Positions 1-53,192 of a stretch of 64,000 nucleotides of DNA are shown piece by piece. The position numbers and the translations under genes are program-made. Origin of the DNA: Cyanidioschyzon merolae (Eukaryota); NCBI GenBank assembly GCA_000091205.1, contig AP006484.2; one strand, 5' to 3'. Below the pieces are notes generated by a model that did no database searches, had not been told where the DNA came from, and saw only the letters and a list, made by a program, of their open reading frames with translations. The first letter of the stretch is position 1, and each line of letters starts with the position of its first letter.

Positions 1-774
1 GCGCATGTTTCCCGCGCGCTGTGTGCTGGGCGGTGCCGCTAACATTGCCCCTGCCGAGTCCAGTGCGAAACTAGTCTAAACGATATGTCGTCGGTAACCA
101 GTTTCAGACCCGTACGAGAGCTCCTGTTGACACTGGCACAATGACTGCGAATTGCGACGTACAAGTGCCTGTTGAATCACACGAGTCCCGCTCACGACGT
201 CGCACTCCAACACCTTCACTGAATATCAATAGCAAAAACTCGAGGTCCCAGCGAGTTTCCCAAACAGAATCCACAAACACCGTTCACTCGGTACGCAAAG
301 AAAACCGTCTGACTGGTGCTGGTCCACGCTGCTAGCCCTCGTTGGGCTATCAAACGTACCTACTTCCAAAAACAAGCTGAAGCCGTACCAGCGGTTACCA
401 GACACCCTACGAAGGATATGCCAAGCGCAACGCGACCGCTGCGACGTGAGAATCGAGCTCGCCACACACAAACACACACAGAGGTATATATGCTTGTAGG
501 AAAAAGCGCTTCAAAGTCGTCGACAACGAAGCACACCGCTCTACCCAAACGTAGACACCAAAAGCGAAACACCGCAACGCATCGCAGCGCGTATGGCCGC
601 CTTTGCGATGCGGCGTTTTGAAAATCGATGCCTGTCGCTGGCACATCAGCCGTTTCAAGTGCGTCTGGGGCGCTGCGAGCCTCGCTCCCAGACACTGCAA
701 CGTCATTTGAACGGCAGCAACTGGTATCGTAACTGCCTGTTCCCTCAATCTCTCTATAGAGCTCTCTGTCTGAC

Positions 775-821
775 TGTGTGTTCGTGTGTGTGTGTGTGTT
801 TGTTTGTTTGTTTGTTTGTTG
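775..821. repeat. Compound microsatellite, (TG)n followed by (TTTG)n
   Basis: Direct reading: tgtgtgttcgtgtgtgtgtgtgtgtg followed by tttgtttgtttgtttgtttgtt, just upstream of the TOP2 start. Confidence 0.9.
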
Positions 822-1031
822 GTCGATTGGTTCCGTCATAGACAGTCAGGGTAGACGGTGCTGTTTTTCGGTGTTCGCTTTGTCTGAACGCTGAAGGAAA
901 CCTCCAGACTGGGTGCGTGAACGTCCGGTCGGGCAAGAAACGCAACCTGTAACCAACCGGTGTACTTGTCAACGTAGCTGGTGCGATACGCTGTTGACAC
1001 TGGTGTTTCGAGGTGCGAGCAATCCGAAAGC

Positions 1032-4000
1032 ATGAACACAAGCTCGGCGAGTTCGGCGCTATCCTCGACGGCTTCGAGGCCCAAGTCCATAGAAGAAACG
1101 TATCAGAAGCTGTCTCAGTTGGAGCACGTGCTCTTGCGTCCAGATACGTATATAGGGTCGACCCAGCGGACGAGTGAGAAGCTGTGGGTGCTCGACGATA
1201 CCATAGCGGAGGAGGGTGCATCCCAGGGAAGCTCGCGTCGTGTTGTATTTCGCGATGTGTCGTACGTTCCAGGCCTGTACAAGATATTCGACGAGATTCT
1301 TGTCAACGCCGCGGATCATAAACAGCGTGACCCAACGCTCGACGAGATTCGCGTTGACGTAGATGCTGAAAACAATCGCATCACGGTCTATAACAACGGC
1401 TCGGGGATTCCGGTTGAGATTCACAGCAAGGAAGGGTGCTACGTTCCGGAACTCATTTTCGGCCACCTGCTTACGTCGAGTAACTACGATGATGAGGAAC
1501 GGAAGGTCACAGGCGGCCGGAATGGTTTCGGGGCGAAGCTTGCAAACATCTTTAGCACAGAGTTTATCGTAGAGACTGCGGATGGTCGTCACTGCTTTCG
1601 TCAGGTGTTCCGCTCGAACATGCAGCGGTGCGAGGAGCCTCAGATAAGGCCGTGCTCCGCGAAAGACAATTACACAAGAGTATCATTCGTGCCGGATCTA
1701 CAGCGGTTTGGCATGAATGCGCTCGATGCGGATACGCTGGCGCTCATGGAGAAACGCGTCCACGATATTGCCGGATGCAATCCTGGCGTGAAGGTGTACT
1801 GGAACGGTTCTCGCCTGCCCATCCGCTCATTCCGCGACTACATCAAACTCTATCTGGCCGAACGCGAGGACACCAGCTTTGTTTACGAACGCGGGCATGA
1901 ACGCTGGGAGCTGGCAGTTGCGCCTAGCGATGGCCAGTTTCAGCAAGTCAGCTTCGTGAATTCTATTTGGACAATCAAAGGAGGCACGCATGTCAATCAT
2001 ATTGCAGACCAGATCGTGAATGCGGTCCTGGAGCATCTCAGTCGGAAGCACAAAAACCTCAAAGTGAAACCTTTCCAGGTGCGTAACCACCTATGGTTGT
2101 TCGTGCGTTGCTTGATCGAGAATCCCGCCTTTGATAGCCAAACGAAGGAGACGTTGACATCGCGGCCTCAGTCGTTCGGATCTCGCTGCGAACTAAGCGC
2201 AGAATTCACGCGCAAACTGCTCCGGAGCGATATCATCGGGAACGTGCTCGAGTTTGCTCGTTTTCGACAGGATGCTGAGCTCAAAAAAACCGACGGGGGT
2301 AAGCGCCAACGCGTGCTCGGTATTCCAAAGCTCGATGACGCCAACAAGGCCGGAACCCGTGAGTCCGCCAAGTGTACCCTCATTCTCACCGAGGGCGATT
2401 CGGCCAAGGCGCTCGCTATTTCGGGGCTCTCCGTTGTTGGTCGCGACTACTACGGCGTCTTTCCACTGCGAGGCAAACTCCTGAACGTCCGAGAGGCCAC
2501 ACACAAACAAATCATGGAAAATACTGAAATCAATCTCCTCAAAAAGATCCTGGGGCTCCAACACGGCAAGGAGTACGATCAGGATAGCGTTCGGCAACTC
2601 CGATACGGCCACGTGATGATCATGACTGATCAGGATCACGATGGATCTCATATCAAGGGCCTGTTGGTGAATTTTTTTCACCACTTTTGGCCTTCGTTGC
2701 TCCGCATCCCAGGATTTCTACTGGAGTTCATCACACCGATTGTGAAGGCGACTGCAAAGCGCGGAGAACGCCTTGAAGAGGTGGTGTTCTTCACGATTCC
2801 CGAATACCAGCAGTGGCGACAGTCCCAGAGCAGCCTCCGAGGATGGACCATCAAGTACTACAAAGGTCTGGGTACATCGACCGCTGCTGAGGCACGAACC
2901 TATTTCAGTAACCTGTCCCGTCACCAGATTCCTTTTGTCTGGCAAAATCACGCTGACTACGAGTCGATCGAACTTGCATTTAGCAAGCACAAAGTCCAGG
3001 AGCGGAAGGACTGGCTTGCTGCCCACAAACTCGGCACATACTTCGACCACGCCGCCGATACGCTCACCTATGCGAACTTTGTGCACAAAGAGTTGGTGCT
3101 GTTCTCTCTCGCCGATAACGCCCGTTCTATCCCGTGCCTCATCGACGGTCTGAAACCCTCCCAGAGAAAAGTGCTCTTTGCTTGTTTCAAGCGCAAACTC
3201 TATCAGGAGATCAAGGTTGCCCAGTTGGCCGGTTATGTAAGCGAGCACGCTGCGTATCATCATGGTGAGGCGAGTCTTATGGCCACGATCATAGGACTCG
3301 CCCAAAACTTTGTGGGCTCGAACAACCTGAACCTTCTGGTTCCTGCGGGCCAGTTCGGTACGCGGCTATCTGGTGGTAAGGATGCAGCCTCACCTCGTTA
3401 CATCTTCACATGTCTCGCTCCGGTTGCACGTGCGCTCTTTCCCGAGGCCGATGATGTGCTTCTCGAGTACCTCGAGGAGGACGGCCTCTCCATTGAGCCC
3501 AAATGGTACTGCCCCGTCATTCCGCTCGTGTTGGTGAACGGCGCTGAAGGTATTGGAACTGGGTGGAGCACCAACATTCCGTGTCATAATCCCCGGGATC
3601 TCGTGCGTATACTCCGAAGCATGCTACTGGAGTCGCACGGCGCTCTGGATGCAGATAACGAAAGCGCGACGCTGGTGCCGTGGTATCGCGGCTTTCGCGG
3701 TTCCATTGTCGCTGTACCGCATCATCCGACGAACTATGAGGTGTTTGGTTGCATGGCTCGATCGTCGGACGGGCGTGTTCGCATACGCGAACTGCCACTG
3801 CGCACCTGGACGCAGCCGTACAAGGAATGGCTGGAAACGCTCGTCGTTGGCAACAGCAGCACGAGTAGCAGTAGTAGTGGTAGTGGTAGTAGCGCGTCGT
3901 CTGCTGCGCAGCAGACGAGCCGACCCTTCCTCAAAGAGGTCGCCGACAACAGCACCGAGACGCTGGTGGACTTTACGCTCCACTGGGCGAATGGCGCAGA

Positions 4001-22084: not shown

Positions 22085-22660
22085 GCTGGCCTATTTTTCA
22101 GATGACAAATCGTTTACATTGACCATGGATCGCAGCATTCGGAATGGAGAATGGCTTTCGGGAAAGCGTCCATCATGAAGCACCTCCCTTCAAGTTCCAT
22201 TACCAGTACTTCTTCTTATCAGATATACAGGTCGTTTCGTATGTTGTGTCGTGCGCCGAGCCTGCCGAAAGCGACAGCAATAGCGCATATACCGCTGAAG
22301 CAGGTGCGACACGGAGACAGAACGGCTTTGCCATTACCAATGAAAGCGTCGACTCGAGGCGTGGTTCCTCCGACATAGGGTCGGAGCACATAGTAATTCT
22401 GGGAGCCTGCAAGCTGCCCAGACGGACGTGCAACCTGCGACAGCGCGAAGCGATATACTAGGAGTCCGCTGCGACCAGGGCGACGCCCGGGCGCAGCATA
22501 ACTGCGCTTATTCCCGGAAGGAACTGTGTTGAGGACGAGCTGTTCATGTCTCGCCACAGCACCCGCCACTGGGGGAGCACGAAGCACGAGCCCGGGACAC
22601 TCGTCCGGCTCGCGGGGCCTTCTACCTAGAAGGTAAACTTTCGAAGATACGGGAACTTTT
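22085..22660 (-). repeat. Copy A of a ~590-bp non-coding repeat family (minus orientation), left arm of the head-to-head inverted pair
   Basis: Reverse complement is near-identical to 23428-24015. The track shows identical 122-aa and 105-aa artefactual ORFs on opposite strands in both arms, with one substitution (H/Y). Confidence 0.85.
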
Positions 22661-23427
22661 CACCGTTCCAACGCTCATTATCAAGGTCAAAAGAAACTGT
22701 TATCTAGTTGCTGGTCAGTGTTTAGTTTCTGTTCTTTCTTCCCTAGGAGAATGCTCTCTGCTCGCGGCCTGGCACAACTGGAGGGCCCACCAGTCCGAGG
22801 ACTAGCCTTTGTTGCCGCTGTTTCTATGCAAAGCTCTGCCGCGCGCGCTCCTTCTCTCTTTCTCTCTCTACATTCTCCTGTCCGCGCCCTTGGCCAAAAC
22901 TCTGAAAAGATATCGCTCGCGTCACTCGTGTTCCTATGTAGGGTATATAGATACGCACTCACAGACGCCTCCGGGCCTTTCCTTGACGGGCCGCGTGCTA
23001 CCGGATTCAGCTTCTCCTCGTACACTACGAGCCTGTCATCGTTTTCTGCTGCTGCCTCCGGCCCTCCGTTCGTTGCGGCCAAGGTCCCTGTCATGGGCTT
23101 CCTTCCCCGTCGCTCGAACACCCCGAGTGAACCCACTTTCAGAGCTTCGCCGAAACAACTAGACCTCTCAGACGGGGGTGGTGTGTGTGGGGCTTTAAGA
23201 TACTTGCTCTTTAGTACACAGTCTGTGGCTAGTTTGTTTTGTTGTTTTTTTCTTTTGTGTTTGGGCAGGTGTCTCCGTCTTGATTGGCTGCGTATCGATG
23301 AATATCACGCGTCGTGTCTCATGCCTGCCTGATCTCCCAGGCGCGCTCACCAAGCGAACTATAGAATCACGTACAGAGACTCATGACTAACGCGCAACGA
23401 TATGAAAATTTCCCCCTCTGAGCTAAA

Positions 23428-24015
23428 CGTTAAAAAGAGGAAAAGCTTCCCGTATTTCAGAAAGTTTACCTTCTAGGTAGAAGGCCCCGCGAGCCGGACG
23501 AGTGTCCCGGGCTCGTGCTTCGTGCTCCCCCAGTGGCGGGTGCTGTGGCGAGACATGAACAGCTCGTCCTCAACACAGTTCCTTCCGGGAATAAGCGCAG
23601 TTATGCTGCGCCCGGGCGTCGCCCTGGTCGCAGTGGACTCCTAGTATATCGCTTCGCGCTGTCGCAGGTTGCACGTCCGTCTGGGCAGCTTGCAGGCTCC
23701 CAGAATTACTATGTACTCCGACCCTATGTCGGAGGAACCACGCCTCGAGTCGACGCTTTCATTGGTAATGGCAAAGCCGTTCTGTCTCCGTGTCGCACCT
23801 GCTTCAGCGGTATATGCGCTATTGCTGTCGCTTTCGGCAGGCTCGGCGCACGACACAACATACGAAACGACCTGTATATCTGATAAGAAGAAGTACTGGT
23901 AATGGAACTTGAAGGGAGGTGCTTCATGATGGACGCTTTCCCGAAAGCCATTCTCCATTCCGAATGCTGCGATCCATGGTCAATGTAAACGTTTTGTCAT
24001 CTGAATAATCAGGTG
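23428..24015 (+). repeat. Copy B of the ~590-bp repeat family (plus orientation), right arm of the inverted pair
   Basis: Begins taaacgttaaaaagaggaaaagcttccc... and ends ...ggtcaatgtaaacgttttgtcatctgaataatc. The 5' end faces the 770-bp spacer, as does the 5' end of copy A. Confidence 0.85.
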
Positions 24016-25158: not shown

Positions 25159-26674
25159 TGTCTACCAGGAATGACTGCGAACGGATCTGCCCTTTCCTGT
25201 ACAGGTATACTAGCGTCACGATTCAGACATCCGGATCGGTACTGTTGGGTTTTTTGTGTACGATTTTTGTCTAACCATTCCCCAGTCCATTACTCTGTGT
25301 ACGTGCTCATCATCTATAAAAGATCGCGTAGCGATGATTCAAACACAATCGGATAGGGCGAGCAGCCACAGCTCGGACCTGAACTCGGGGAGCGTTTTCA
25401 TGACGTATCGCGTACAGGCAGTCGCAGGTTTCGGGTCGACGATGAGATCGCAGCGCCGCAGCACCAGCGTCGGCACACCATTACGAAAACGGTGCTCGCA
25501 TCCACCGAAGCTTTCATGAAGGAACAGTGCGTCGCGGACGTCGTCGTTGCATGGCCTTTGGTGGAGTGCGTGCGCTTCAAGGTGTCAACGCGGCTGCCTT
25601 GTAAGCAACAAGCGCGCCCTATGCAGACGTTTGTGGGTACCTCAACTGCATCATGAGGTACACACAGCGACAGCCCTACTCCTGGGCGTTCGAACAGCCC
25701 ATACGACGTCGCCCGGTGGTGAACAGTAGTATATGCTTATCTTGGGTGTCCAGATTTGGCAGCGCACGTACCCGAATTCACTACAATTGCGAATGGATGC
25801 CCACGAGATATCGAGCCTAACGTAAGCATTTGGTCTTCATCATGCGAGAGTGATGCGTGGGACGAGAAGCTCCAGCTCGCATAGATGATGCTGATGCCGC
25901 ATTTTTCGTGCATAGAGCTCCTGTCCTGAGCGGATTCCTGCGAATACCGCAGCCCCCAGTTCAGTGTTTCCCCTCGGACCAGAGCTTTATTGGATCTAGC
26001 GATCCGCCCAGTGGCTCGTCCGCTGCGCACGACTCGAGGAGGCGGGGCGCTGTTTTGCTTTATACGGTTTTGCAATGATAAACCTAACGACGGATCCCTC
26101 TGATGCACCACAATTACCGGAATGAGGACGTATTTGCCTGCAGAGTGTCGGACACGTGTCCATCATCGATCGGAGTAGCGTCTCGCGCGGTGCACGCATT
26201 GCGCACCGTAAGCGCGCCTGGGAGATCGGGCAGTCAACTGACGCGACGCGCGTGCCGTTGTTGAAGGGAAATGGGATCCTGATCAGGAGCGTGTAGCTCT
26301 CTTTTAAAAGTTGTATTTCCGTTAACTTGCTAGGCAAGTGTAGTTTTTCAGCTCACTCGTGTTTCAAACCTCAAGTAAAAATATTCGATTGGGGTTTACC
26401 GGTTTATAACAGAAGCGTTCAAAAGCGTTTTTTTTCCAAAAAAAAAACTAAAAAAGGAAAGCTATGAAAAAAGTTGACGATCTTGGAGGCCCAGTGTCGC
26501 TGGCTGCCAGAAAAAAAAACAAAAACCAGTGCCGAGTACAGAAGAAAAGGAAGAGGAAAAGAAGCAAACAATTTAGAGGGCCTACGTCGTAGGCAGCAAG
26601 AAAGACGCCTGTACGACGAGACGGTGGTGAAAGTCTGTTTTCTTGAACATGACTAGGATCCGTACGATGAAAAG

Positions 26675-28697
26675 TTGCGAGACGCTATCAGAAACCATGT
26701 CGACTCGTTCGCCAAGAGTATTGTCAAGGCGTCGTCAGGATTGGTGCATTTGGCGAGGGAGATGCATTGCAACGTGACGCACATGGAAACGGTCGAGATT
26801 CCGAATGAGTTCTTCGATAAGACCTTTACTCGTCACCTGATGCTTGGTACAGAGGAAACGCGGAAGGAAAATGAGCTGGTGCAAATCCTCCACGAAAAAC
26901 ATCCCCTTTACAGCTTCAATGGTACTCGATACTAGGCTTACCGGGATATTTATCCATATGGGCCCATGAAGTACCCCACGAATCTGAAGGACCATTTGAC
27001 GGTGAACCTCGAACGTTTCATGATACGTGCCGTGGTTACACTCTACCTGGGCCTATCTCGCAATGGAAAATGGGCGATTATCAATGGCGTCACGAACGAC
27101 CGCAAGCGTGAAGATGAGGTCGAATTTGTCGACAAGAAGACATCACGCAGGAGCACGAATGAAGCTTCTGGAATCCGTGCGGTTACAGAAGAGCACCGTG
27201 CGGTACTGGGGTTGGTTCATCCAACAGACAAGATATCAGAGTTGAAAAAAGACAAGGAAAGATACTATCGCCTCGTCCTGCGATATTTCGTGTTTTTGGA
27301 CCGAGAACTCGAACACAAGGTGGAGATGAAGCTGAATGGCGAAAAATGAAGAGTGGGAGAGACCGAAGGCTTTCCTAAAGGGGAAGCGCTTAAACGTGGT
27401 TCCAATGTGCAACATCAGGTCACATTTCGTGACTATCGACTCCAGAATCCTTTACGGCATCATGAAAGGGATCAGTACCGTGTTCAATGTTAGCAGGGAA
27501 TACTTCACCGGCGAAAACCGGGAGACGTACTGGAAGAATATCTTCGATTTCAAACGCCTGAGAGTGAGCAAGCAGAAATTGTTCACTGGGATGATCGAAA
27601 GCGATGGAGTAGCCTTGTGTGTACACGATCGGCGGTTGAAGACAAATCGTCCAGTTCCGCCCTCGGTCTCGCCCGTGCCGAAGCGTGAAGAAAAGGAGGC
27701 GGATCCTGTGACGCAGGAGGTGGAGGATAACGACCTTGTCGTTGATGCGGTGAAGCATGAAGAAAACAAGCAGGCGGATCCTGAGACGCAGAAAGTGCAT
27801 AACAACGACTTTGTCGTTGGCGCGGACCCCGGAAACACAAATATCATAACCATCGCAGTACCCAAACGTGCGGAGGATTGTACTGACGGTAACTTACGTC
27901 AGAAAGACATACGTATTTTTAAGTTCTAAAGATAGAGGCATTACCGAGAATCCGGTATAATAAATGCGAAGAAGAAAATCGGGACATGGAATGCAGGAGT
28001 CAAAGAGCACCTTGAAGCTTTGAGCGAGGTGACGAGCCGCGGAATAGACTTTCAAACTTTTCGGGAGTTCATGAAAGTTCTCGTTCCTCATTGGTAGGCG
28101 CTGTGGGAGGCGTATACAAAGCCCCGGTGGGCTCGTCTGCGTATGAACGTTTACTGCGGGAAACAGCGTGCATTCGCGAACTTTTTCAATGAGTTGAGTG
28201 CCTTCACAGATGATGAAAGTCACAGGCTCGTAGTAGCGTACGGAGCAGGGCGCTGGGCGTCGAGAACAGGTACTACGCCAGTTCCGTCAACAAGAACGTA
28301 CAAGGAGTGCGCGAGGCATTTTGCCGCAATGCCTGTACATGTGTTCCGAACATCGTATACACACCACGACTTGGAGTGCACACTTCTGAAAGTCGAGGTG
28401 GAAAAGTGCCAGCGGAGCCCGGAGGATATCAAATTGTACGGACCGCTGAAGGAAGAGCAAATGGAAAGCAGGGCAAAACTTCGAGAGCTACTTGCGCTTG
28501 TGTGCACAACCAATGATGGCAAGAAACGTATAAAATTCCTGTATCGCGACTTTAAGGCCGCTATCAATATGAGGACATGTGCAGTGCTGGAGAACAGAGC
28601 TCCGGAATGGACAGGAGGGAATTTGTGGGGCAACATCTCAAAGTGGAACTATATGAGAAACAATTGGAACCATTCGTACGTGACCGGTCGAGGATAA
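26675..28697 (+). pseudogene. Pseudogenised TnpB/Fanzor-like nuclease ORF (copy 1)
   Basis: Frameshifts between the N-terminal fragments. In-frame TAA AGA TAG at 27927-27935 (shared with copy 2). Copy-specific TAG at 28095-28097 where copy 2 has GAT. Confidence 0.5.
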
Positions 28698-28812
28698 CTG
28701 GGAAGCGTCTGCACCTCAGTGGATGACCTCGTGTCTGGGGCGCGTCACTCGCCAATATTCTACTCCGCTGGCGGCAGCGTTTTTCTTCTGAAAGGCGTTT
28801 GTTGTTGCTGGC
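26675..28812 (+). mobile_element. Degenerate TnpB/Fanzor-like (RuvC-fold, OrfB_IS605-type) element, copy 1, including the conserved 115-bp 3' flank; 5' boundary uncertain (could extend to ~26400)
   Basis: Fragmented ORFs at 26675-26935, 26966-27349, 27336-27929 and 27936-28697 are co-linear with paralogous fragments at 50918-52555 (minus). RuvC-I-like [16 protein letters not shown] (Asp codon ~27825). RuvC-III-like RDFKAAINM (~28549). Zn-ribbon-like FRTSYTHHDLEC. Reconstructed protein ~670 aa. Homology with copy 2 continues 115 bp past the stop, to ~28812. Confidence 0.5.
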
Positions 28813-28815
28813 GAT

Positions 28816-30543
28816 ATGCTCAGGTGGTCCGGATCTCAACAGGTAACCGACCGGAACCGAGCCGAACAGCATGGCCTGGTCGTGGCGTTCGCTTTTCCTG
28901 CTCGAGCACCGCGCCACAGCGAAGCAACACACGAGCGCTGGACTGGGCTGGCGCAGCGCGAACGCGGCTTGTGTGTACCGTTGAAAGCGACCAAGTGGAA
29001 ACGAGACTTGTGGCACTCGCGAAAGCTTCAAATGCAGGAGCCTGCACAGCGGAACAGAGAGCAGGTGCAAGCGCTAGTAGTAGGCTCTGGAGTGACTGGC
29101 TCTTCGTTCGCGTTCCTGCTGCAGCACGCTGGAATAAGCGATGTGATTTGCACCGAGGCACGAGGTGAAGTTGGTGGAAACCTTATTTCGCGTTCCAAAG
29201 ACGGCTACCTTTGGGAAGAAGGGCCCAACACCTTCCAACCAACACCGGTGATTCTGAAACTCGCGCGAGACGCGGGTCTCGAGTCCGAGCTTGTCTTCGC
29301 CGACGCCAAACTCCCTCGATACGTATACTGGGAGGGGGTTTTGCACGCGCTCCCGAGTTCGCCTGCAGACCTGATCACCGGCCGTTTCCGCCTGTTATCG
29401 AATGCGGGGAAGGCTCGGGCAGCGCTCGGAGCGCTCGGGTTCGTAGGCGCACCCAAACGCGTCGCACGGCAAGCTGGACCCGAGCCCAGCGAGGATGCTG
29501 ACCTAGCAGACGAGTCTGTAGAGGAATTCGTGACTCGCCATCTAGGCCGCGAAGTTTTCCTGAAGATTATAGACCCCTTCGTGAGCGGTGTGTATGCAGG
29601 CGATCCCAGCAAACTCTCCATGGCTGCAGCTTTCAAGCGCGTGTACGCACTCGAGCAGCTTGGCGGAACACGCGGGATTCTCGAAGGGGCGCTCATCCGT
29701 CTGCAACAACGTCGACGGGAACGTCAACGCTGGGCGGCAGAGAATCTCCCCAAGGTGAAAGCGGGTGCACTGGGCTCCTTCCGCGAGGGCCTGCAGCAGT
29801 TGCCGCTCACAGTGGCGACTCGGCTGGGCCCTGAGCGAATGCGAACTCGGTATGCACTGCGCCAAATTGAATACAATGGAGCAAAACGTGGAAAACGTCG
29901 CTATACTGCCCGCTTCGAAACCCCAGATGGCGAACGAGTTATCGAAACAGATGCCCTCATTCTTACGATCCCCGCACATGCGGCGTCACCGCTCTTGCAA
30001 GGTCTGGGTGTCTCTGGGAGTGAGCTGCTCCAGGAAATCGACTTTCCGCCGGTATACTCGGTAACTTTGGCATACCCAAAGTTTGCAGCGCGGTTTCCCC
30101 TAAACGGTTTCGGGAACCTGATACCGCGCTCTGCCGGTATTCGCACCCTCGGGATGGTCTGGTCGTCGAGTTTGTTTCCGGAACGAGCGCCTCCCGATAT
30201 GAATATGGTGCTCTCATACATCGGCGGTGCGCGTGATCCTGGTATCCGCGAATGCACCCCGGATGAAGTCGCTGCCCTCGTAGACGCGGACATGCGTCGC
30301 GTCCTCCTACGTGCCGATGCACCTTCGCCGCAAGTTCTTGGTGTGAGACTTTGGCCGCGGGCGATTCCACAATACAACCGGGGTCACTTGCGGCGCTTGG
30401 AAGCCTGCAACCAGGGTCTACAAGGCTTTCCTGGTCTCTTTTTAGGCGGAAACTATCTGAGTGGCGTTTCCTTCGGTGACTGCGTACAGTGGGCGTACGA
30501 TAATGTGCCTCGAGTGCTGACGTTTCTGCAGGAGACGGCTTGA
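28816..30543 (+). CDS. PPOX: Protoporphyrinogen IX oxidase (HemY-type, FAD amine-oxidase fold)
   Basis: ALVVGSGVTGSSFAFLLQHAGISDVICTEARGEVGGNLIS (dinucleotide-binding GxGxxG), ...YLWEEGPNTFQP..., and a conserved C-terminal HemY-like region. The first ATG at 28816 gives a ~72-aa leader (possible transit peptide); an alternative ATG is at 29032. Confidence 0.8.
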   Translation: MLRWSGSQQVTDRNRAEQHGLVVAFAFPARAPRHSEATHERWTGLAQRERGLCVPLKATKWKRDLWHSRKLQMQEPAQRNREQVQALVVGSGVTGSSFAFLLQHAGISDVICTEARGEVGGNLISRSKDGYLWEEGPNTFQPTPVILKLARDAGLESELVFADAKLPRYVYWEGVLHALPSSPADLITGRFRLLSNAGKARAALGALGFVGAPKRVARQAGPEPSEDADLADESVEEFVTRHLGREVFLKIIDPFVSGVYAGDPSKLSMAAAFKRVYALEQLGGTRGILEGALIRLQQRRRERQRWAAENLPKVKAGALGSFREGLQQLPLTVATRLGPERMRTRYALRQIEYNGAKRGKRRYTARFETPDGERVIETDALILTIPAHAASPLLQGLGVSGSELLQEIDFPPVYSVTLAYPKFAARFPLNGFGNLIPRSAGIRTLGMVWSSSLFPERAPPDMNMVLSYIGGARDPGIRECTPDEVAALVDADMRRVLLRADAPSPQVLGVRLWPRAIPQYNRGHLRRLEACNQGLQGFPGLFLGGNYLSGVSFGDCVQWAYDNVPRVLTFLQETA

Positions 30544-35173: not shown

Positions 35174-35596
35174 GAGTGGGCAGCAGAGCGCGCTTCAGCG
35201 TAACCTGCGTGGACGCTCACGGCATCCAGCTCTGTCGAGCGCTGTTTGCTCGCTGGTCACGAAACGCTCGAGCGCTTGCGCCTTACGGCGACTCGCGGGT
35301 CTCGAGCTTCGGTAGTCACTGTGATAGCGTTCAGACAAAAACCTGATGAAAAACTTGCACACCGATCTGGTCGAAGCGGAGAAGCTCAGCGGCGTTATGA
35401 GGGAGAGGAATCCCGTCTGTAAAGTCAGGTACGATGCGGATGGTGAGCCATTCTGGTCTTTCAAGTAAATTTTATTGCACCATTGCTGCAGTGTATAGCC
35501 GGAGATCGAAACCACGATGCAACGTACCGTATCGAAAACGAACAGACACGAACTTTTACATGGTAACGAGATAACAATTTCGTTCGACCTGTGCGG

Positions 35597-36190
35597 TAAA
35601 CGTTAGAGGGGAAAGCTTTCCGAATCGTCGAAAGTTTGCGTTCAGAGCGAAAGGTCCCTAGAACTGTACGAGTCTGCAGGGCTAGTGCTTCATGCTCTCA
35701 CAAGTGGCTGGTGCTTTGGCGAGACGTAAGCAAATCGTCCGCAACAAAGGTTATTCTGGGACTAGGAGGGGGTAGGCTGTGTCGGGGCGTCGCCCTGGTC
35801 GCAGTGGACTCCTAGTACATCGCTTCGGGCTACAGGCAGTAGGTCTGTCTCCGCAGCTTCCTGGCTCCCGGCATGCTTATGTACTTCGACCCTCTGTCCG
35901 GTGAGCCACGCCACGCGGAGATGCCCGCAGTGGTATGGCAACGCCGTACAGTGTCCTTGATGCATCCGCTCCAGCGGCATAACTGCTATTACGAATGCAG
36001 CAGGGGAGGTACTCGGTGCAAGATAGAACGTATGGAACAACCAGTACATCCGAAAGGAAGTATACACAATGGGAATTGCAGCTAGGGTGCAGCATGATAG
36101 ACACTTTCCCCAAAGCCAATACCCATGCATTCCGCATCCTGGAATCCAAGGTCAACGTAAACGTTCTGTCATCGGCAAATAATCCGTTGC
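35597..36190 (+). repeat. Copy C of the ~590-bp repeat family (diverged, plus orientation)
   Basis: Shares with copy B the 5' block taaacgtta..gaaagctttcc..gaaagttt, a 33-mer gggcgtcgccctggtcgcagtggactcctagta (1 mismatch), GTGCTTC.TGCTC...AGTGGC.GGTGCT.TGGCGAGAC, ggaggtactcggtgca, atccgaaaggaagt, and the 3' block ggtcaacgtaaacgttctgtcatcgg.aaataatcc. Confidence 0.75.
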
Positions 36191-36198
36191 GGTCTTAT

Positions 36199-36625
36199 CC
36201 ATCCTGTCTATGATATCCAATATTATACGTTTTCAGAATCTTCCTCGATGCAGCGTGTCCATAGAGCTCACTGCCATCCTGTCTATAATGTCCAATATTA
36301 ATCGTTTTCAGAACCTTCCTCGTTGCAGCGTGTCGATGGCGCTCACTGCCATCCTGTCTATAATGTCCAATATTATCCCTATTCAGAACCTTCCTGAATG
36401 CAGCGTGTCGATGGCGCTCACTGCCACCCTGTCTATAATATCCAATATTATCCCTATTCAGAATCTTCCTCGATGCAGCGTGTCGATGGCGCTCACTGCC
36501 ATCCTGTCTATAATATCCAATATTATCCCTATTCAGAATCTTCCTCGATGCAGCGTGTCGATGGCGCTCACTGCCATCCTGTCTATAATATCCAATATTA
36601 TCCCTATTCAGAACCTTCCTCGATG
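36199..36625 (+). repeat. 75-bp minisatellite, ~5.7 tandem units, immediately 3' of repeat copy C and in frame with the bromodomain ORF
   Basis: Unit cagcgtgtcgatggcgctcactgccatcctgtctataatgtccaatattatccctattcagaaccttcctgaatg (75 bp = 25 codons). The track ORF translates MQRVDGAHCHPVYNIQYYPYSESSS three times. Confidence 0.9.
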
Positions 36626-38632
36626 CAAGTCCCCGCGCCATTCCCGCATACTCCGCTGCGCCCTCTGGTTCGTATTTGCGACGTGCAGCGCACCAGTTCC
36701 ACCTGGATGCGTCGTACCCGCCAGCATGCACCCTTTGCTGGTAACAGTATATCCTATAGCGCTCGGGAAGATGACGGTTTCCCCGATAGAGAGGATCCCG
36801 GCGATCTCGCCCTCCCGGACGACAGCTGGTCGGCGACGGGCGACGACACCGAGTCCAGTGCAGCGACGACTCGGCGCCAGCGGGTAACGCGGCGGCGAGG
36901 TCGGGCTTCGTCTCCGAGCACCGACACCAGTGAGCCTGCGCGTCAACGACAGCGACGCTCGCGCACCTCTCACATCAGTGTCGGTGACGAGTCCGGACAA
37001 CGACCGACTATCCGGACGCGCTCGGCATCGTCGCTAGAAGCAGGCGGCGTGCCCCGAGCCACTTCATCTGATCAGGATACGTTTCGGAATACCGTGGCTA
37101 TTCTCATTGAGCAGGTACGGCAGCATGATCGTTATGGGTTCTTCTGTGCCCCGGTTGATCCGGAGGAGGCGCCTGACTATCACGAAGTGATCCCAGAGCC
37201 GATGGATCTCGGTACCATGCAGAGGAAGCTCGAGACAGGCAAATATCGGCGCCTCGACGAAGTTGAGCGTGACCTAGATCTTATCTGGCGCAACTGTTTC
37301 ACATATAATCCAACAAATAGCATTTACTACCGCGAGGCGGCACGAATGCAAAAGTGGGCGCTGAAACGGGTCCAGTGGGCGCGTCAGCGACTCTGCGGCA
37401 TTACGGGAGCGCCCAGTCCCGCCGAAGGACAAAGCTTCAGTACGTCAACGCATTCTCGTGATGAAAAGGTACAGCACACCCATTCGAGGATGGTGAAAGG
37501 CGTATCGCGTGGGTCCGCGGTGGCTCTGGACTCGGCACCGCGGATGACGGTACGACTCCAGACAGAACGTCATCGGGACCCGGCTGCAGTGCCCGGCACG
37601 AGCTCGGAGCTGCCTACCGCAACCGAAACTGAAGGCAAACCGAAACCCGTTGCCGAAATGGATGTTGTTCTGGATGAGGCGCTGGACCCAGAGGCATCGT
37701 ATGCGGTGGCAGCGCAGGACCCTGGCGCCTTTATCGAGCGCGTATGGCGAGCGTTCGTGACTCGCCAAGAGCGCTTGCGTATCGAGAAGGAGCACGAACG
37801 ACTGTATCACTATCCGCGTCACAGTTCGGAGGGCGAGCGTGCTGCTGCTGACCTAGCCAGGACGATGCTTTCGCAATGGCTCGGGAAAACGATCAAACGG
37901 GCTCCGAACGATGCGGAGAAATATTTGCTGGAAATTCTTTCCGCTGCAGAGCTACCCGCCGAAACTCTCCAGCGAATGGCAACAGCATTCACGAGTCAGC
38001 AGCAGAACGGAGCAACTGCAGCAGCATCTGTTGAGGAAAACCCGTCTTTGAAGTCGAGGCCTACAGTCGGACGTGGTACACATGCAGCCGCTTCGCATGA
38101 CGATGCCCAGACCCGAGGAGCGAGTGCTTCAGCAACGGACGACTCGCCCGAGACATCAAAGGACGCGTTCATCGCCTCGCGTTGGTATGCCTTGCGACGC
38201 TCTCTTGCAGCGCTCCGGTTGGCCCAGATACAGAACGCACCCCTTTCCGAGCAACTCCGCCGCTATGATACGGTGCTCGCGCTCCTAGCACGCCAGTTGG
38301 AGACCATCCCGCCACGATTGCTCTTAGCCGAGGGTGGAGTCGAGAGCATCCGCGCATTTGCGCAGCGCCTTGTCCAATATGAAGATTCTCGTGCCGAAGA
38401 CGCAACGCCAAATGCTGAGAGTTCTGGACAAACACCGATGGCGAGTGATCCAGATGCGACGCAGCCGCAAAAGGGTGCTACAGATGGCCATAGCGTCGGT
38501 CATCACCCGGCAGCGACACCAGGAGCCGCTCATGCAAACGATGGGGGCGCTCAGACGGATCGCCCGCATGACATCAAAGTCGACGGCGTTTTTTCTGCGG
38601 GGAACGCAACTATGCTCAGACCGCAGGTTTAG
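36398..38632 (+). CDS. Bromodomain-containing protein (start codon uncertain; N-terminus may include minisatellite-encoded 25-aa repeats)
   Basis: Bromodomain FFCAPVDPEEAPDYHEVIPEPMDLGTMQRKLETGKYRRLDEVERDLDLIWRNCFTYNPTNSIYYREAARMQKWA (conserved Y...N pair). Alternative ATGs lie downstream of the repeats (~36623, ~36695). Confidence 0.7.
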   Translation: MQRVDGAHCHPVYNIQYYPYSESSSMQRVDGAHCHPVYNIQYYPYSESSSMQRVDGAHCHPVYNIQYYPYSEPSSMQVPAPFPHTPLRPLVRICDVQRTSSTWMRRTRQHAPFAGNSISYSAREDDGFPDREDPGDLALPDDSWSATGDDTESSAATTRRQRVTRRRGRASSPSTDTSEPARQRQRRSRTSHISVGDESGQRPTIRTRSASSLEAGGVPRATSSDQDTFRNTVAILIEQVRQHDRYGFFCAPVDPEEAPDYHEVIPEPMDLGTMQRKLETGKYRRLDEVERDLDLIWRNCFTYNPTNSIYYREAARMQKWALKRVQWARQRLCGITGAPSPAEGQSFSTSTHSRDEKVQHTHSRMVKGVSRGSAVALDSAPRMTVRLQTERHRDPAAVPGTSSELPTATETEGKPKPVAEMDVVLDEALDPEASYAVAAQDPGAFIERVWRAFVTRQERLRIEKEHERLYHYPRHSSEGERAAADLARTMLSQWLGKTIKRAPNDAEKYLLEILSAAELPAETLQRMATAFTSQQQNGATAAASVEENPSLKSRPTVGRGTHAAASHDDAQTRGASASATDDSPETSKDAFIASRWYALRRSLAALRLAQIQNAPLSEQLRRYDTVLALLARQLETIPPRLLLAEGGVESIRAFAQRLVQYEDSRAEDATPNAESSGQTPMASDPDATQPQKGATDGHSVGHHPAATPGAAHANDGGAQTDRPHDIKVDGVFSAGNATMLRPQV

Positions 38633-44431: not shown

Positions 44432-44937
44432 CAAAACCCACGACACTCAGGATAGTACAGTCTTGTGTGGCTTGCTTCGAGCGCTCTCGCGCCCACTGTT
44501 CAGCGTTCGGGCTGGAGAGGCGGCGCGGCTCAGGTGTGATGCCCCGAGGTCGCCACGCTGCCTCTCCCTGCAGGAGAGTAACTCCGTTCGAAGGGTTTCG
44601 AGCCTTCAATTGCCCTGCAAATCAAAAGCAAAGTCCTGCCCCGCGCCAGAGACGCTGCAGTGAAACGTCTGCGCCGCGTCCTGGAAGCTCACCGGCGGGA
44701 GACACCGAGCGCACGCGCGTTGGCGCCTAGTCCAACGATGAACCCTAATCTTGTTCGACGCTGGCGAAGAACTCTCCAACACTTTAGCGCTCCAGCAAGC
44801 GAACTTGCCGCCGTTTGCCTCTGAAAGAAACGTCCTAGTAGTGAGCTCGTGGAGCACGATTGCTATGAAAGTCGACGTTGGCCAGCACGACTGATACGGA
44901 TCCAGCCTCGCGTTCGGGTCAGCCAAGTAACCCGGAT

Positions 44938-45101
44938 GCGATAAACTGTATACATAGGGATGAAATGGGACAGAATTCTCCTCTTCGTCACCTGAACGCC
45001 AACTTGATTGCTAAACGATGCGATAAACTGTATACATAGGGATGAAATGGGACAGAACTCTCCTCTTCTTCACCTGAACGCCAACTTGATTGCTAAACGA
45101 T
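44938..45101. repeat. Tandem duplication, 2 x 82 bp
   Basis: gcgataaactgtatacatagggatgaaatgggacagaa(t/c)tctcctcttc(g/t)tcacctgaacgccaacttgattgctaaacgat occurs twice back-to-back. Confidence 0.9.
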
Positions 45102-48923: not shown

Positions 48924-50438
48924 ATGATAGGCACAGGCTACGTGGGGTTGGTGTCAGGTGCGTGCTTCGCGGACGCCGCGCACTGCTGTGTCGTCTGCGT
49001 GGACTCGAACGCTCAGAAGATCGACGCGCTCAAGCGGGGTGAAATGCCGATTTTCGAGCCAGGCCTCGCCGACCTGGTTCGAAGGAACGTTCAAGAAGGA
49101 CGTCTGAGCTTCTCGACTGACCTCGCTGCAGCCGTTCGCGACGCGCAGATCGTGTTCATCGCTGTTGGAACGCCATCTCGTCGAGGTGACGGTCACGCCG
49201 ACCTCAGTTACGTATTCCGTGCTGCAGAGGCGATTGGGAAAAGCCTCCGATCGCCAGGTTTTACCTTGATTGTGAACAAGTCGACGGTGCCGGTGGGCAC
49301 TGCACGACGCGTACGCGAACTCGTTCAGCGAAACTGCGCCCCTGGCGCGAGCTTTGAGGTTGTCAGCAACCCAGAATTCCTACGTCAGGGTACAGCGGTT
49401 CAGGATTTCATGTACCCGGAACGTGTGGTCATTGGCATGTGGGAAAACCGGTTTCAACGGCAGCATGAATGCACTGCGTTTAGGTCAGCGCCGCTCCATC
49501 TTCATGAGCGTCGTTTCGTGGCGGATACAGAGCCCGGGTTCGATACACGCAAAAACGCGCAGACGCTCATGACACAGCTGTATACGCCCATTGCGCGAAT
49601 CAGTGGAGCACCCGTTCTTTTCACGAATGTGGAGGAAGCCGAATTGGTCAAGTACGCTGCAAACGCTTTCCTGGCTATGAAACTCGAGTTCGCGAATGAA
49701 ATTGCGGACTTGTGTGAGGTTGCCGGTGCCGACATCAGCGTGGTCACGCATGCCATTGGCCTCGATGCTCGCATCGGACCAGACTATCTGCAGGCTGGGC
49801 CGGGCTTCGGTGGCTCATGTTTGCCAAAGGACACACGAGCCTTAGCGCGGATCGCACAGGAGTTGTGGCGTCCGTGTCGCCTCGTGGAGACAGTCATCGA
49901 GGGCAACGAGGCGCGAAAACGGCGGATTGCCCAGAGAATTGCCCTCGCAGTCGTTGGTAACAGCGCTGACATGAATCACGTCTACGGGCGATGTATTGGG
50001 GTGCTCGGTCTGACATTCAAGGCACACACGGACGATACTCGTGACTCACCTGCAGTGTTTATTGTGCGAGAGCTAGTGGAACTTGGGGCCAAGGTGCGAG
50101 CATACGACCCCCAAGCGAATCATCGAGAAGTGCATCAAATACTGGGGGAAGATGTCGAACTCGTCTGCAGTGCACAGGAAGCAGCCCGAGGCGCCGATGT
50201 GCTCGCGGTCCTCACAGAGTGGCCCGAAATTCGTCAAGCTTGCGACGCGCTCGGGCCAGAAGGACTAGGGAGCCTGATGCGTCACCGTGTTATCTTCGAC
50301 GCACGAAACCTCTGGAGACCAGAGGACTGGCTCCATAGCGGCTTTACCTACCATTCCATTGGGCGTCCCACTATTTATGCCGACACCGCTGCCTCGTTCG
50401 CAGACGCCTCCGTACATACGACTCAACGGTTGCGCTGA
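48924..50438 (+). CDS. UGD: UDP-glucose 6-dehydrogenase, bacterial-type (UDPG/GDP-mannose dehydrogenase family)
   Basis: MIGTGYVGLVSGACFADAAHCCVVCVDSNAQKIDALKRGEMPIFEPGLADLV, IVFIAVGTP, catalytic GGSCLPKDTRALA, C-terminal UDP-binding domain. The core starts at the ATG at 48924. The upstream in-frame ATG at 48648 would add a ~92-aa leader; the track start at 48585 is TTG. Confidence 0.8.
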   Translation: MIGTGYVGLVSGACFADAAHCCVVCVDSNAQKIDALKRGEMPIFEPGLADLVRRNVQEGRLSFSTDLAAAVRDAQIVFIAVGTPSRRGDGHADLSYVFRAAEAIGKSLRSPGFTLIVNKSTVPVGTARRVRELVQRNCAPGASFEVVSNPEFLRQGTAVQDFMYPERVVIGMWENRFQRQHECTAFRSAPLHLHERRFVADTEPGFDTRKNAQTLMTQLYTPIARISGAPVLFTNVEEAELVKYAANAFLAMKLEFANEIADLCEVAGADISVVTHAIGLDARIGPDYLQAGPGFGGSCLPKDTRALARIAQELWRPCRLVETVIEGNEARKRRIAQRIALAVVGNSADMNHVYGRCIGVLGLTFKAHTDDTRDSPAVFIVRELVELGAKVRAYDPQANHREVHQILGEDVELVCSAQEAARGADVLAVLTEWPEIRQACDALGPEGLGSLMRHRVIFDARNLWRPEDWLHSGFTYHSIGRPTIYADTAASFADASVHTTQRLR

Positions 50439-50777
50439 GTCGCCTGTCGCGCTCGTTGCTTCTGCAACGCCGTCCGTCGCAGTCGCTTCTCCGTGTTGCT
50501 TTCGAAGAACTGTCGACGCTTCACTTCCTGCAGGATGCCGGCTTTCACCACCTCCTTCTTAAACCTTCTCAGCGCACTATCGACGGGTTCTCCCGGGTTC
50601 ACGAGCACCCGAACCCGCATCTCAATTGACGTGTCACTCGCCGGTCGCTGACATGTCGGAGCACAGGTGCCGACCCCACGCCCCGCGACAAACGAATGAT
50701 AGGGCACAGCAGCTATCTTGGAAGCAGTTAACGTAACGAACATGGGTTTAATCTTTGAAAACTCGTCGCTTGTAATG

Positions 50778-52690
50778 CGGTGCCAACGACGAACGCTTCA
50801 GAAGTCGAAAGCAGTCGCCGTCACGGGTACAGTAGTGGCGGCGAACGCGCCTTGGACAAATTGGCTCCAAATGACGTGCAGATGCTTCCTAGGCTTTCTC
50901 GCCCGGCCACCTCCAACTTATTCCAACTGTTTCTCATATAGTTCCACTTTTAATGATTGTCTAACAAAGTTCTCTCTTGTCCATTCTGAAGGTCTTCTCT
51001 CCAGCACCGCGCTTGTCTTTACATTGATAAGGGCGTTCAAGTTTCGATTTGCAAACTCCATACGGTTGTAGCCGTTGGGAGTTGTCCTCATCAGTGCAAG
51101 CAAACCTCGAACTTTCGCACTCCTTTCCATTTGCTCTACCGTCAGCGGTCCGTACTTTGCTAGTTCCTCAGGGCTCCGTTGGCACTTTTCCATCTCCTCC
51201 CTCTGAGGTGTACACCCCAGTTCATGGTGTGTATACGATGTTCGGAACTCGTCTACAGGTATTGTGGCAAAACGCCTCGGGCACTGCTTGTACGTTCTCG
51301 TCGTTGGAGCTGGAGTAGTCCCTTTTTGTGTCTTCCATCGGCCTGCTCCGTACGCTACAACGAGCCTTTGACCCTCGTCCTCCTTCGGGGCGCTCAACTG
51401 ATTGAAAAAGTTGGCGAACGCCCGCTGCTTACCGCAATACAGATTTATTCGCAAACGAGCCCACCGGGGCTTGGTATACTCCTCCCACAGCGCATCCCAA
51501 TGGGCAACACGAACTTCCATGAATTTCCGAAAAGCTGTAAAGTCCGCCCCGCGGCTCGTCACCTCGCTCAAAGCTTCCAGGTGATCCTTCATTCCTGCAT
51601 TCCATGTCTCGATTTTTTCCTCGCATTCATTATAACGGATTCGCGGTAATGTCTCTATCTTTAGAACTGAAAAAGACGCATGTCGTTCTGACGTAAGTTG
51701 CCGTCAGTACCATCTTCCCCACATTTGGGTGCTGCAATGGCTATGATATTTGTGTTCCCGGGGTCTGCGTCAACGATAAACTCGTTATCCTCTACCTACT
51801 GCGTCGCAGGATCCTCCTCCTTCTCATCTTCATGCTTCGCCGAAGGCAAAGCCGCGGGCGGAACATGGCGATCCGCCTTCAACCGCCGATAGCGTACACA
51901 CGTTGCCACTCCATCGGTTTCGATCATCCCAGTGAATGCCTTTTGTTTGCTCGCTTTCAGAAGTTTGAAACTGAAGATGTTCTTCCAGTACGTCTCCCGG
52001 TTTTCGCCGGTGAACTCCTCCCTGTTCACATCGAACTCCGGACAGATAACCCTCATGATGCCATAAAGGACTCTGGAATCGATAGTCATAAAATGTGACT
52101 TGATATTGCACATTGGAAACATGTTGCAGCGCTTACCCATTACGAAAGCCTTCCGTCTCTCCCACTCTTCATTTTTTCCTCACTCAGCTTCATCTTCGCA
52201 TTGCGTTCGAGTTCTCGGTCCAGATACTCGAAATACCGCAGGATGAGATAATAGTATCTTTCCGTATCTTTTTCCAAGTATGATATCTTTTCTGCTGGAT
52301 TCGCCAGCCCCAAGTCTGCGCGATGCTCTTGTCTAACTGCACGGATCTCAGAAGCTTCATTATTTCTCCTGTGTCATGTCTTCTTGTCGACAAATTCGAT
52401 CTTTCCTTCGTTCTTACTATCGTTCGTGATGCCATTGATGATGGCCGATCTCTTTCCTCTGGAGAGAGACCTCGGTACCGTGCAAACACGGTGCGTATCA
52501 TGATATGTTTCAGGTTCACAATCACACTGAGCTTCAGGCTCATGAGGTACTGCATCGCCCCGTCACAGTTGATTCTGGGACTCGGAGCGGGTAGCCTGCG
52601 TCTTGGCGTCGAGCTGGTTCATTTGGAATCCCAGGACCTCGTTTCGTGCAGCCACATCAAGTATGTCTGTCTGCACAACTTGTAGGCTCT
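50778..52690 (-). mobile_element. Degenerate TnpB/Fanzor-like element, copy 2 (minus strand), 5'-truncated, including the conserved ~140-bp 3' flank
   Basis: Fragments 52190-52555, 51796-52140 and 50918-51592 are paralogous to copy 1 (e.g. [70 protein letters not shown]). 3'-flank homology runs to ~50778. 5' homology with copy 1 is lost at ~52690. Confidence 0.5.
50918..52555 (-). pseudogene. Pseudogenised TnpB/Fanzor-like nuclease ORF (copy 2)
   Basis: Premature TAG (GAG in copy 1) near 51797. The same in-frame TAA AGA TAG as copy 1 near 51655-51666. A 1-nt deletion relative to copy 1 just downstream. N-terminal truncation. Confidence 0.5.
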
Positions 52691-52719
52691 CAGAATGATC
52701 ATCACCCCCGATCCCGTAT

Positions 52720-53025
52720 TGAATGCATCAAGCCTCCAGCCGACGTCTGCAGCGGTATGGCAAAGCTATTTTGCCGCTGTGATGCATTGGCATCAGCGGT
52801 GTAGGCGCTACGGCGGGTGCAGCAACGGAGGTACTCGGCGCATGATACAACGTACAAAACCACCAATAGATCCGAAAGGAAGTGAAACTAATGCAACTTG
52901 CAGGTAGAGTGAAGAATAATGAGCGTTTTCATTGATTTCAATATCCATCCTGCAAACTGGAATCCCAGGTCAACGCAACGATATTGTCATCGAAAGAAAT
53001 CGGACGACCAGCGTAATATGCGCCG
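52720..53025 (+). repeat. Copy D of the ~590-bp repeat family: 3' ~310-bp fragment, abutting the truncated 5' end of TnpB-like copy 2
   Basis: Aligns to the 3' half of copy C: cagcggtatggcaa, gatgcat, ggaggtactcggcgca, aacgtacaaaaccacc..atccgaaaggaagt, ggaatcccaggtcaacgcaacgatattgtcatcg. Confidence 0.65.
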
Positions 53026-53192
53026 CCGCCATGGTCGACACGCATTCGGGCCTTTTTTGATCAATCCTATAATTATCTTGAATAATTTGTAGGAAGTAGA
53101 TCAAACGATCCTAGGGCGCGCCATGTGCCGCTCCGGAAAAGGCGGGTATTTCAAAATTCCCCTTGTACTGGGGTGTTTGCGAGCCCATAGCC

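Follow-up and report, generated by a model that had tools for sequence, protein, structure and literature searches.

What are the two related, heavily interrupted coding segments that lie in a 64,000-nucleotide (nt) stretch of Cyanidioschyzon merolae DNA (NCBI GenBank assembly GCA_000091205.1, contig AP006484.2; hereafter the window), and could either of them still work? A sequence-only reading of this DNA had taken them for decaying copies of a TnpB/Fanzor-like nuclease element in a nuclear locus of a GC-rich, plastid-bearing protist, and had implied that the family was new. Fanzors are eukaryotic RNA-guided nucleases that have been prominent since 2023, and Fanzor1 forms the eukaryotic branch of the TnpB/Cas12 RNA-guided nucleases. 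Here, we find that both segments are almost certainly dead copies of CMe-1A, a Fanzor1-carrying transposable element of C. merolae; the TnpB/Fanzor-like assignment held up and can be narrowed to Fanzor1 by profile, fold and a DNA match to CMe-1A. The setting had also been read correctly: the window holds long uninterrupted open reading frames (ORFs) at 53-62% G+C, and five of its proteins (topoisomerase II, an Mpp10-like protein, plastid CPN60, an Oxr1-like protein and MRE11) match C. merolae 10D entries exactly (BAM78840, BAM78845, BAM78846, BAM78850 and BAM78857). What did not survive is the implied novelty. CMe-1A as found in the window is already known, its family, consensus, copy number and protein having been published in 2013 (PMC3627910); because the family has been described since then and the window copies are fossils, the novelty of the find is nil.

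Bao & Jurka 2013 (Mob DNA 4:12; PMC3627910) described a single Fanzor1 family in C. merolae, CMe-1A, with ~150 copies that are each ~80% identical to a 3169-bp consensus encoding a 734-amino-acid (aa) protein; the element has no terminal inverted repeats (TIRs), its target-site duplication was left undetermined, and its 5' 635 bp are common to TE-N2_CMe, an element of ~70 copies. The same authors reported intact CMe-1A copies in C. merolae and remarked on the unusually long-lasting coding capacity of the family (PMC3627910). We took the consensus DNA and protein from their supplement and aligned them to the window. Consensus positions 657-3169 match window 26209-28797 on the plus strand with 83.8% identity (copy 1), positions 1399-3169 match 52563-50790 on the minus strand with 85.3% identity (copy 2), and a 5' piece of copy 2 (consensus 1-423, window 52992-52566, minus strand) matches with 76% identity. 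Translated, the fragments of both copies share 71-80% of their residues with the published CMe-1 protein. Self-comparison of the window pairs 26960-28807 (+) with 52561-50784 (-) at 78-79% DNA identity (bit scores 827 and 673), and in the coding frame the copies share 60-67% of their amino acids, confirming the earlier view of two homologous, co-linear copies. Their proposed extents need some correction: copy 1, placed at 26.7-28.8 kb, is indeed there but starts at 26209 or earlier, and copy 2, placed at 50.8-52.7 kb, is present but carries a 975-bp deletion and a 5' piece at 52566-52992. The protein had been estimated at ~670 aa, which is too short: the published consensus encodes an intact protein of 734 aa, and P0001, an intact metagenomic relative, one of 752 aa. 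Carriage in multiple copies extends beyond this pair, as the 64 kb hold three solo relatives of the 5' end in addition to the two copies, and 71 related loci were fetched from metagenomes; conservation per block was scored over 58 loci, and the copy 2 junction was seen in alignments to 70.

How firmly can the family be placed within Fanzor1? A homologue search returned 146 sequences with E <= 0.001, mostly from Joint Genome Institute (JGI) metagenomes and including P0001; other homologues among them are ~700 aa long, with ~35% identity. With P0001 and the published CMe-1 protein as tblastn queries, copy 1 matches over residues 50-729 at 71-72% identity. A profile built from 25 relatives matched Parasitella Fanzor1 PpFz1 (9cf0, E = 9.8e-15) and Spizellomyces SpuFz1 (8gkh, E = 7.4e-9) in the PDB, with no further significant PDB match, and a single repaired window protein gave a weak, co-linear match to Spizellomyces Fanzor1 (E = 0.38). 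The AlphaFold2 model of P0001 has a mean predicted local distance difference test (pLDDT) score of 76, and its seven best Foldseek hits in the PDB are all Fanzor1 structures (PpFz, SpuFz, GtFz; E = 1e-15 to 1e-13), followed by weak matches to Cas12 variants (E = 7e-3 upwards). Profile and modelled fold, the latter with the WED/REC/RuvC/NUC architecture of Fanzor1, together mark CMe-1 as a Fanzor1 homologue. Of the checks proposed in the sequence-only reading, the structural comparison came out clearly, with Fanzor1 in the top seven places for P0001, and the search with hidden Markov models gave a split answer, Pfam yielding only a sub-threshold PF07282 but the relatives' own profile matching Fanzor1. 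The Pfam test alone is not decisive for the CMe-1 clade.

Does the family have the residues of a working active site? The earlier reading had found Ala at the RuvC-II position (RLVVAYGAGRW) in both copies and offered two explanations, a faulty motif alignment or a catalytically dead lineage. The motif alignment was correct for both copies, and among the 25 relatives the canonical RuvC-II position reads (V/I)(A/G)(Y/F)G and is never acidic. All Fanzors have an inert residue where the canonical RuvC-II Glu would stand and rely instead on an essential alternative Glu ~45 residues downstream (Jiang et al. 2023). Three residues of P0001 are invariant among the 25 aligned sequences, D484 (GADPG), E656 (VDEFRTS) and D725 (NRDFNAAIN), and a HMMER alignment places them on D383, E541 and D606 of SpuFz1 (with a 394-residue offset for maltose-binding protein), which coordinate magnesium in the cryo-electron microscopy structure (Saito et al. 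2023). This alignment puts the alternative Glu of CMe-1 within VDEFRTS. Taken as a whole, the family is predicted not to be catalytically dead, because an inert RuvC-II residue combined with a downstream Glu is the known Fanzor arrangement and this Glu is invariant here; the proposed dead lineage does not fit its conservation in the relatives.

The motifs quoted earlier are largely in place, RuvC-I in copy 1 and both RLVVAYGAGRW and FRTSYTHH in the two copies, but RDFKAAIN is found in copy 1 only. In copy 1, all on the plus strand, RuvC-I lies at 27819-27857 with its Asp retained, the canonical RuvC-II position at 28224-28256 without Glu, as in all Fanzors, the alternative Glu site at 28332-28367, where PVHVFRTSYTHH stands in place of PVDEFRTSYTHH, and the RuvC-III motif YRDFKAAINM at 28542-28571, again with its Asp. 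The corresponding minus-strand positions of copy 2 are 51733-51771 for RuvC-I (DADPG), 51335-51367 for RLVVAYGAGRW, 51224-51259 for the retained alternative Glu (PVDEFRTS) and 51020-51049 for RuvC-III, which is mutated to NRNLNALINV with loss of the Asp.

Could either window copy still encode the protein? Copy 1 has four frameshifting indels (26511, 26568, 27337 and 28621), six stops in the consensus frame (26654, 26933, 27927, 27933, 28095 and 28724) and a lost alternative Glu (PVHVFRTS). Copy 2 has three frameshifts, all of them 1-nt deletions (52462, 52178 and 51617), five stops in the consensus frame (52376, 51798, 51663, 51657 and 50920) and a lost RuvC-III Asp (NRN). Because each copy carries three to four frameshifts and five to six stops and has lost one catalytic residue, and the start of copy 2 is missing, both are, to judge by their sequence, molecular fossils that are unable to encode the protein and have no nuclease function.

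The two had been described as independently disrupted. This is true of most defects, which are private to one copy, but not of the stops at consensus codons 465 and 467, which occur in both copies and in the metagenomic locus L067 (near 4279). TAA and TAG stand there for consensus Ser465 and Ala467, at 27927-27935 (+) in copy 1 and at 51655-51663 in copy 2, within a shared patch of seven substitutions that creates both stops. Neither window copy is the nearest relative of the other, and the patch is either a gene-conversion tract or the mark of a dead sublineage copied in trans. A seemingly shared frameshift near 27340 lies in an A7 run from which each copy has lost a different number of nucleotides (-2 and -1 nt). 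Short introns were considered at both places and rejected: over the shared stops the only GT..AG span is 13 nt, and near 27340 the A7 run with its unequal losses speaks against an intron.

The pattern of divergence preserves a trace of an earlier, functional phase. Relative to the consensus, the copies diverge by 0.12-0.145 per site at codon positions 1+2, by 0.19-0.20 at position 3 and by 0.21 in the non-coding 5' part, and the difference between codon positions persists after a split by base composition. Divergence between the copies shows a third-position bias as well, strongest in the C-terminal half. Because positions 1+2 diverge less than position 3 and the non-coding 5' part, each copy's lineage spent part of its history with the protein under selection. 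That fits the long-lasting coding capacity remarked on by Bao & Jurka, and it is not reconciled with the shared stop patch. The 71 fetched metagenomic loci contained a single intact ORF of 560 codons or more, and a search among them found no orthologous or empty insertion sites.

As an element, copy 1 spans 26145-28797 (+), lacks the first 656 bp of the consensus and has a different 5' variant instead. Its decayed Fanzor1 ORF (26464-28738, +) corresponds to consensus ORF 906-3110 and retains the ATG at 26464. The element starts at 26209 or earlier, probably at 26145: the segment 26145-26208 is absent from the published consensus and common to at least ten metagenomic copies with a second type of 5' end, which indicates a second 5'-end variant of the CMe-1A family. 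This 5' segment possibly begins at ~26040, and the 5' side is heterogeneous among the aligned related loci. On the other side, conservation over the 58 scored loci falls at ~28800. Directly upstream of RuvC-I, at 27677-27825 (+), copy 1 carries an acidic repeat of 24 aa (72 nt) with a self-match between 27680-27750 and 27752-27825. The unit, KHEE.K.ADP.TQ.V.DND.VVD, varies in number, occurring once in the consensus and in copy 2, twice in copy 1 and five times in P0001, where residues 374-471 of the model are disordered (pLDDT <50). Against the consensus, the extra unit of copy 1 appears as 72 inserted nt that keep the frame; we had considered a private duplication, which is ruled out by the variable number of this repeat in the family.

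Copy 2 is more severely rearranged. Its 3' portion (50790-52563, -; consensus 1399-3169) holds what is left of the Fanzor1 ORF, its C-terminal three quarters in decayed form, and its 5' portion (52566-52992, -; consensus 1-423) is a TE-N2_CMe-like end. The consensus 423 side directly abuts position 1399, an internal deletion of 975 bp that has taken out the start codon together with the first 164 codons, and the junction is sharp at 52563/52564 in the alignments to other loci. Three solo TE-N2_CMe-like repeats complete the set in the window. The one at 22101-22741 (+; consensus 2-640, 81.7% identity) is non-coding and shares the CMe-1A 5' end; the others lie at 23308-24001 (-; consensus 2-697, 81.1% identity) and 35530-36174 (-; consensus 1-644, 79.8% identity). 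The first two converge, and between 22093-22661 and 23440-24009 they are 98.6% identical to each other over 570 bp at ~81% identity to the consensus. The arms are ~780 bp apart, and their closeness in sequence suggests that an inverted duplication or gene conversion took place recently. Starting 25 bp from the end of the third solo copy, a 75-bp tandem array (36199-36627; 5.7 copies, 93% match) enters the start of ORF 36398-38632, so that this ORF opens with 25-aa repeats (MQRVDGAHCHPVYNIQYYPYSESSS). Elsewhere in the window, an intergenic 82-bp unit occurs twice at 44935-45101 with 97% identity, and Rfam and tRNA scans of the window found no non-coding RNA genes.

What about the right end, where the guide RNA of a Fanzor element would be expected? 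Alignments to the 71 related loci place the 3' end at ~28797-28805, reading ...GAAAGGCG(TT) after a terminal hairpin. Beyond the consensus ORF end at window 28738, copy 1 continues as a non-coding 3' tail up to its right end (28739-28797, +), which is where the end of a guide-RNA (omega/fRNA) scaffold would be expected. Over these ~60 nt, conservation is 0.63-0.94 per 10-nt block among 58 loci, about as high as in the coding part, and the tail can pair with sequence just upstream (CAGTAGTGG with CCACTACTG). RNAalifold, applied to the last ~210 nt of the element, gave no structure. By analogy with characterised Fanzor1 elements, the CMe-1A 3' end may hold such a scaffold. Host genes begin almost directly beyond both window copies: 19 bp separate the 3' end of copy 1 from the first ATG of a protoporphyrinogen-oxidase-like ORF (28816-30543), and a gap of ~50-75 bp lies between the 3' end of copy 2 and the first position of an ORF for a bacterial-type ribosomal protein S21 (50423-50743, -), which itself overlaps the end of a UDP-glucose-dehydrogenase-like ORF by 16 bp. 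On its other side, copy 2 is flanked by ORF 53163-55301. In metagenome contigs L002-L005, relatives of ~700 aa with ~35% identity to CMe-1 (P0089) lie directly downstream of a same-strand DDE_3 (PF13358) ORF; this hints that P0089-type relatives are carried by a DDE-transposase element, and a TIR search around the relatives beside the DDE_3 ORF found nothing convincing.

How, then, might an intact element work? An intact CMe-1A would measure ~3.2 kb and encode one Fanzor1-type protein of 734 aa, with a single predicted RuvC site formed by the Asp of GADPG, the relocated Glu of VDEFRTS and the Asp of NRDFNAAIN. Characterised Fanzor1 proteins bind a non-coding RNA from the 3' end of their own element, and the 3' extension of this RNA guides cleavage of matching DNA beside a short target-adjacent motif (Jiang et al. 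2023; Saito et al. 2023). By analogy, the CMe-1 protein would bind an RNA from the right end of its own element, and the 3' guide of this RNA would direct cleavage of matching DNA beside a target-adjacent motif, which would probably aid the persistence or spread of the element. That intact CMe-1 proteins are RNA-guided and cleave DNA is what we infer from these relatives. A candidate intact member exists in the form of a 752-aa ORF in metagenomes that hold close Cyanidioschyzon relatives (L001/L008). The full picture is tentative, and on balance we doubt it: intact members would be active RNA-guided nucleases suited to a hot, acidic habitat, working without a CCCC zinc finger or a partner transposase, TE-N2_CMe, with only the 5' end in common, would be their non-coding passenger, and the window copies would still be dead.

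Several results weigh against the assignment or against the function proposed for it. A Pfam scan of the repaired window proteins gave no match at curated thresholds, and PF07282 (Cas12f1-like TNB) was reached only below threshold, in 15 of 25 relatives (best E = 0.0019; cut-off 26.3 bits). The published consensus protein and the intact relatives likewise had no Pfam match at threshold, including to the OrfB_IS605 and Cas12f1-like_TNB models, and an NCBIfam scan of repaired proteins, published consensus protein and intact relatives returned nothing relevant. At the presumed guide-RNA end, the ViennaRNA structure for the last ~210 nt has 87.6% of cells paired and no covariation above shuffles, and the folded consensus 3' end reaches z = -1.74, weak thermodynamic support. 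CMe-1A has no known partner transposase, TIRs or target-site duplications, and the searched literature yielded no biochemical test of any CMe-1 protein. SpuFz1 and TnpB have in common a CCCC zinc finger in the NUC domain (Saito et al. 2023). The ligands of this finger in SpuFz1 are C548, C551, C586 and C591; CMe-1 and its relatives have no conserved Cys at the aligned positions, and the Zn-ribbon that had been read into FRTSYTHH..C...C finds no support for the same reason. The missing finger is a difference from SpuFz1 only, an obligatory role of the finger in Fanzor1 not being established here.

Which other explanations deserve consideration? The Ala or Gly at the canonical RuvC-II position, seen in both copies and in 25/25 relatives, could mark a catalytically dead Fanzor/TnpB derivative with the canonical Glu replaced, for example an RNA-guided DNA binder. 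Active Fanzors, however, carry the same substitution and use a downstream Glu (Jiang et al. 2023), and E656 is invariant in the family and aligned with the catalytic E541 of SpuFz1; we regard a dead lineage as very unlikely. A bacterial-type TnpB (IS605/IS607) or a Fanzor2, recently acquired from prokaryotes or giant viruses, would share the domain order of TnpB and could produce the weak PF07282 matches. Such an origin is extremely unlikely given that only Fanzor1 structures are significant by profile and fold, that the AlphaFold2 model shows a large helical N-terminal half of the Fanzor1 type, that no TnpA or serine recombinase lies nearby, and that many copies, ~80% identical to the consensus, reside in the nuclear genome.

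The window copies could also have been co-opted by the host, either as a truncated C-terminal protein (the 224-aa ORF 50918-51592) or as promoter or 5' untranslated region for the protoporphyrinogen-oxidase-like ORF and S21. Here one could point to the third-position bias between the copies, greatest in the C-terminal half, and to the 19 bp that separate copy 1 from the first ATG of ORF 28816-30543. The codon bias is seen against the consensus as well, though, and is explained by selection before each copy died; the 224-aa ORF has no RuvC-I and has lost the RuvC-III Asp, and none of the 71 related loci holds an orthologous conserved copy, which together leave co-option a very small chance. That the RuvC similarity is spurious and the segments come from some unrelated family, for example one of DDE transposases, viral proteins or host genes, would sit well with the missing Pfam match at threshold. 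This has virtually no chance when the E values of 1e-9 to 1e-15 point to Fanzor1 only and the three catalytic residues align exactly with SpuFz1, and we rejected it on the Fanzor1-only profile match together with the Foldseek result. Dead copies of the Fanzor1 element CMe-1A are the reading that we retain.

What does this locus teach? Recognising a Fanzor from raw sequence was a sound call that adds little, since the family was published in 2013 and the copies are pseudogenes. The window nevertheless shows cleanly that a relocated RuvC-II glutamate can mislead a motif reading, and the CMe-1 clade is one that Pfam alone misses. It also draws attention to a Fanzor1 lineage, so far uncharacterised, in a thermoacidophilic alga, without the usual zinc finger and open to biochemical testing. 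Are intact CMe-1 proteins active nucleases despite the missing zinc finger? We consider this a mildly interesting question.

Finally, we would like to place CMe-1 next to known systems. The nearest is CMe-1A itself, which is the same element: the window copies align to it over their whole length, including the TE-N2_CMe-like 5' end in copy 2, and differ from the consensus in being defective and, for copy 1, in having the extra 5' segment 26145-26208 and one extra 24-aa unit. With bacterial TnpB (e.g. ISDra2) and Cas12f, CMe-1 shares the RuvC fold and, by analogy, the presumed 3' position of the RNA-guide gene; it differs from them by the absence of the canonical RuvC-II Glu, a much larger N-terminal half, a eukaryotic nuclear host and the absence of TnpA, and the Pfam TnpB models are unmatched by it at threshold. 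Cas12f is among the Cas12 variants that the P0001 model matched weakly by fold. Compared with the characterised Fanzor1 proteins, CMe-1 is only 12-15% identical, has no conserved CCCC finger and no TIRs, and carries a variable acidic repeat before RuvC-I. What it has in common with them is the domain order, the Asp-Glu-Asp RuvC triad with its relocated Glu and, according to the model, the overall fold of SpuFz1 (8gkh), PpFz1 (9cf0) and GtFz1 (9cer), with template modelling (TM) scores of 0.54/0.67 to SpuFz1.

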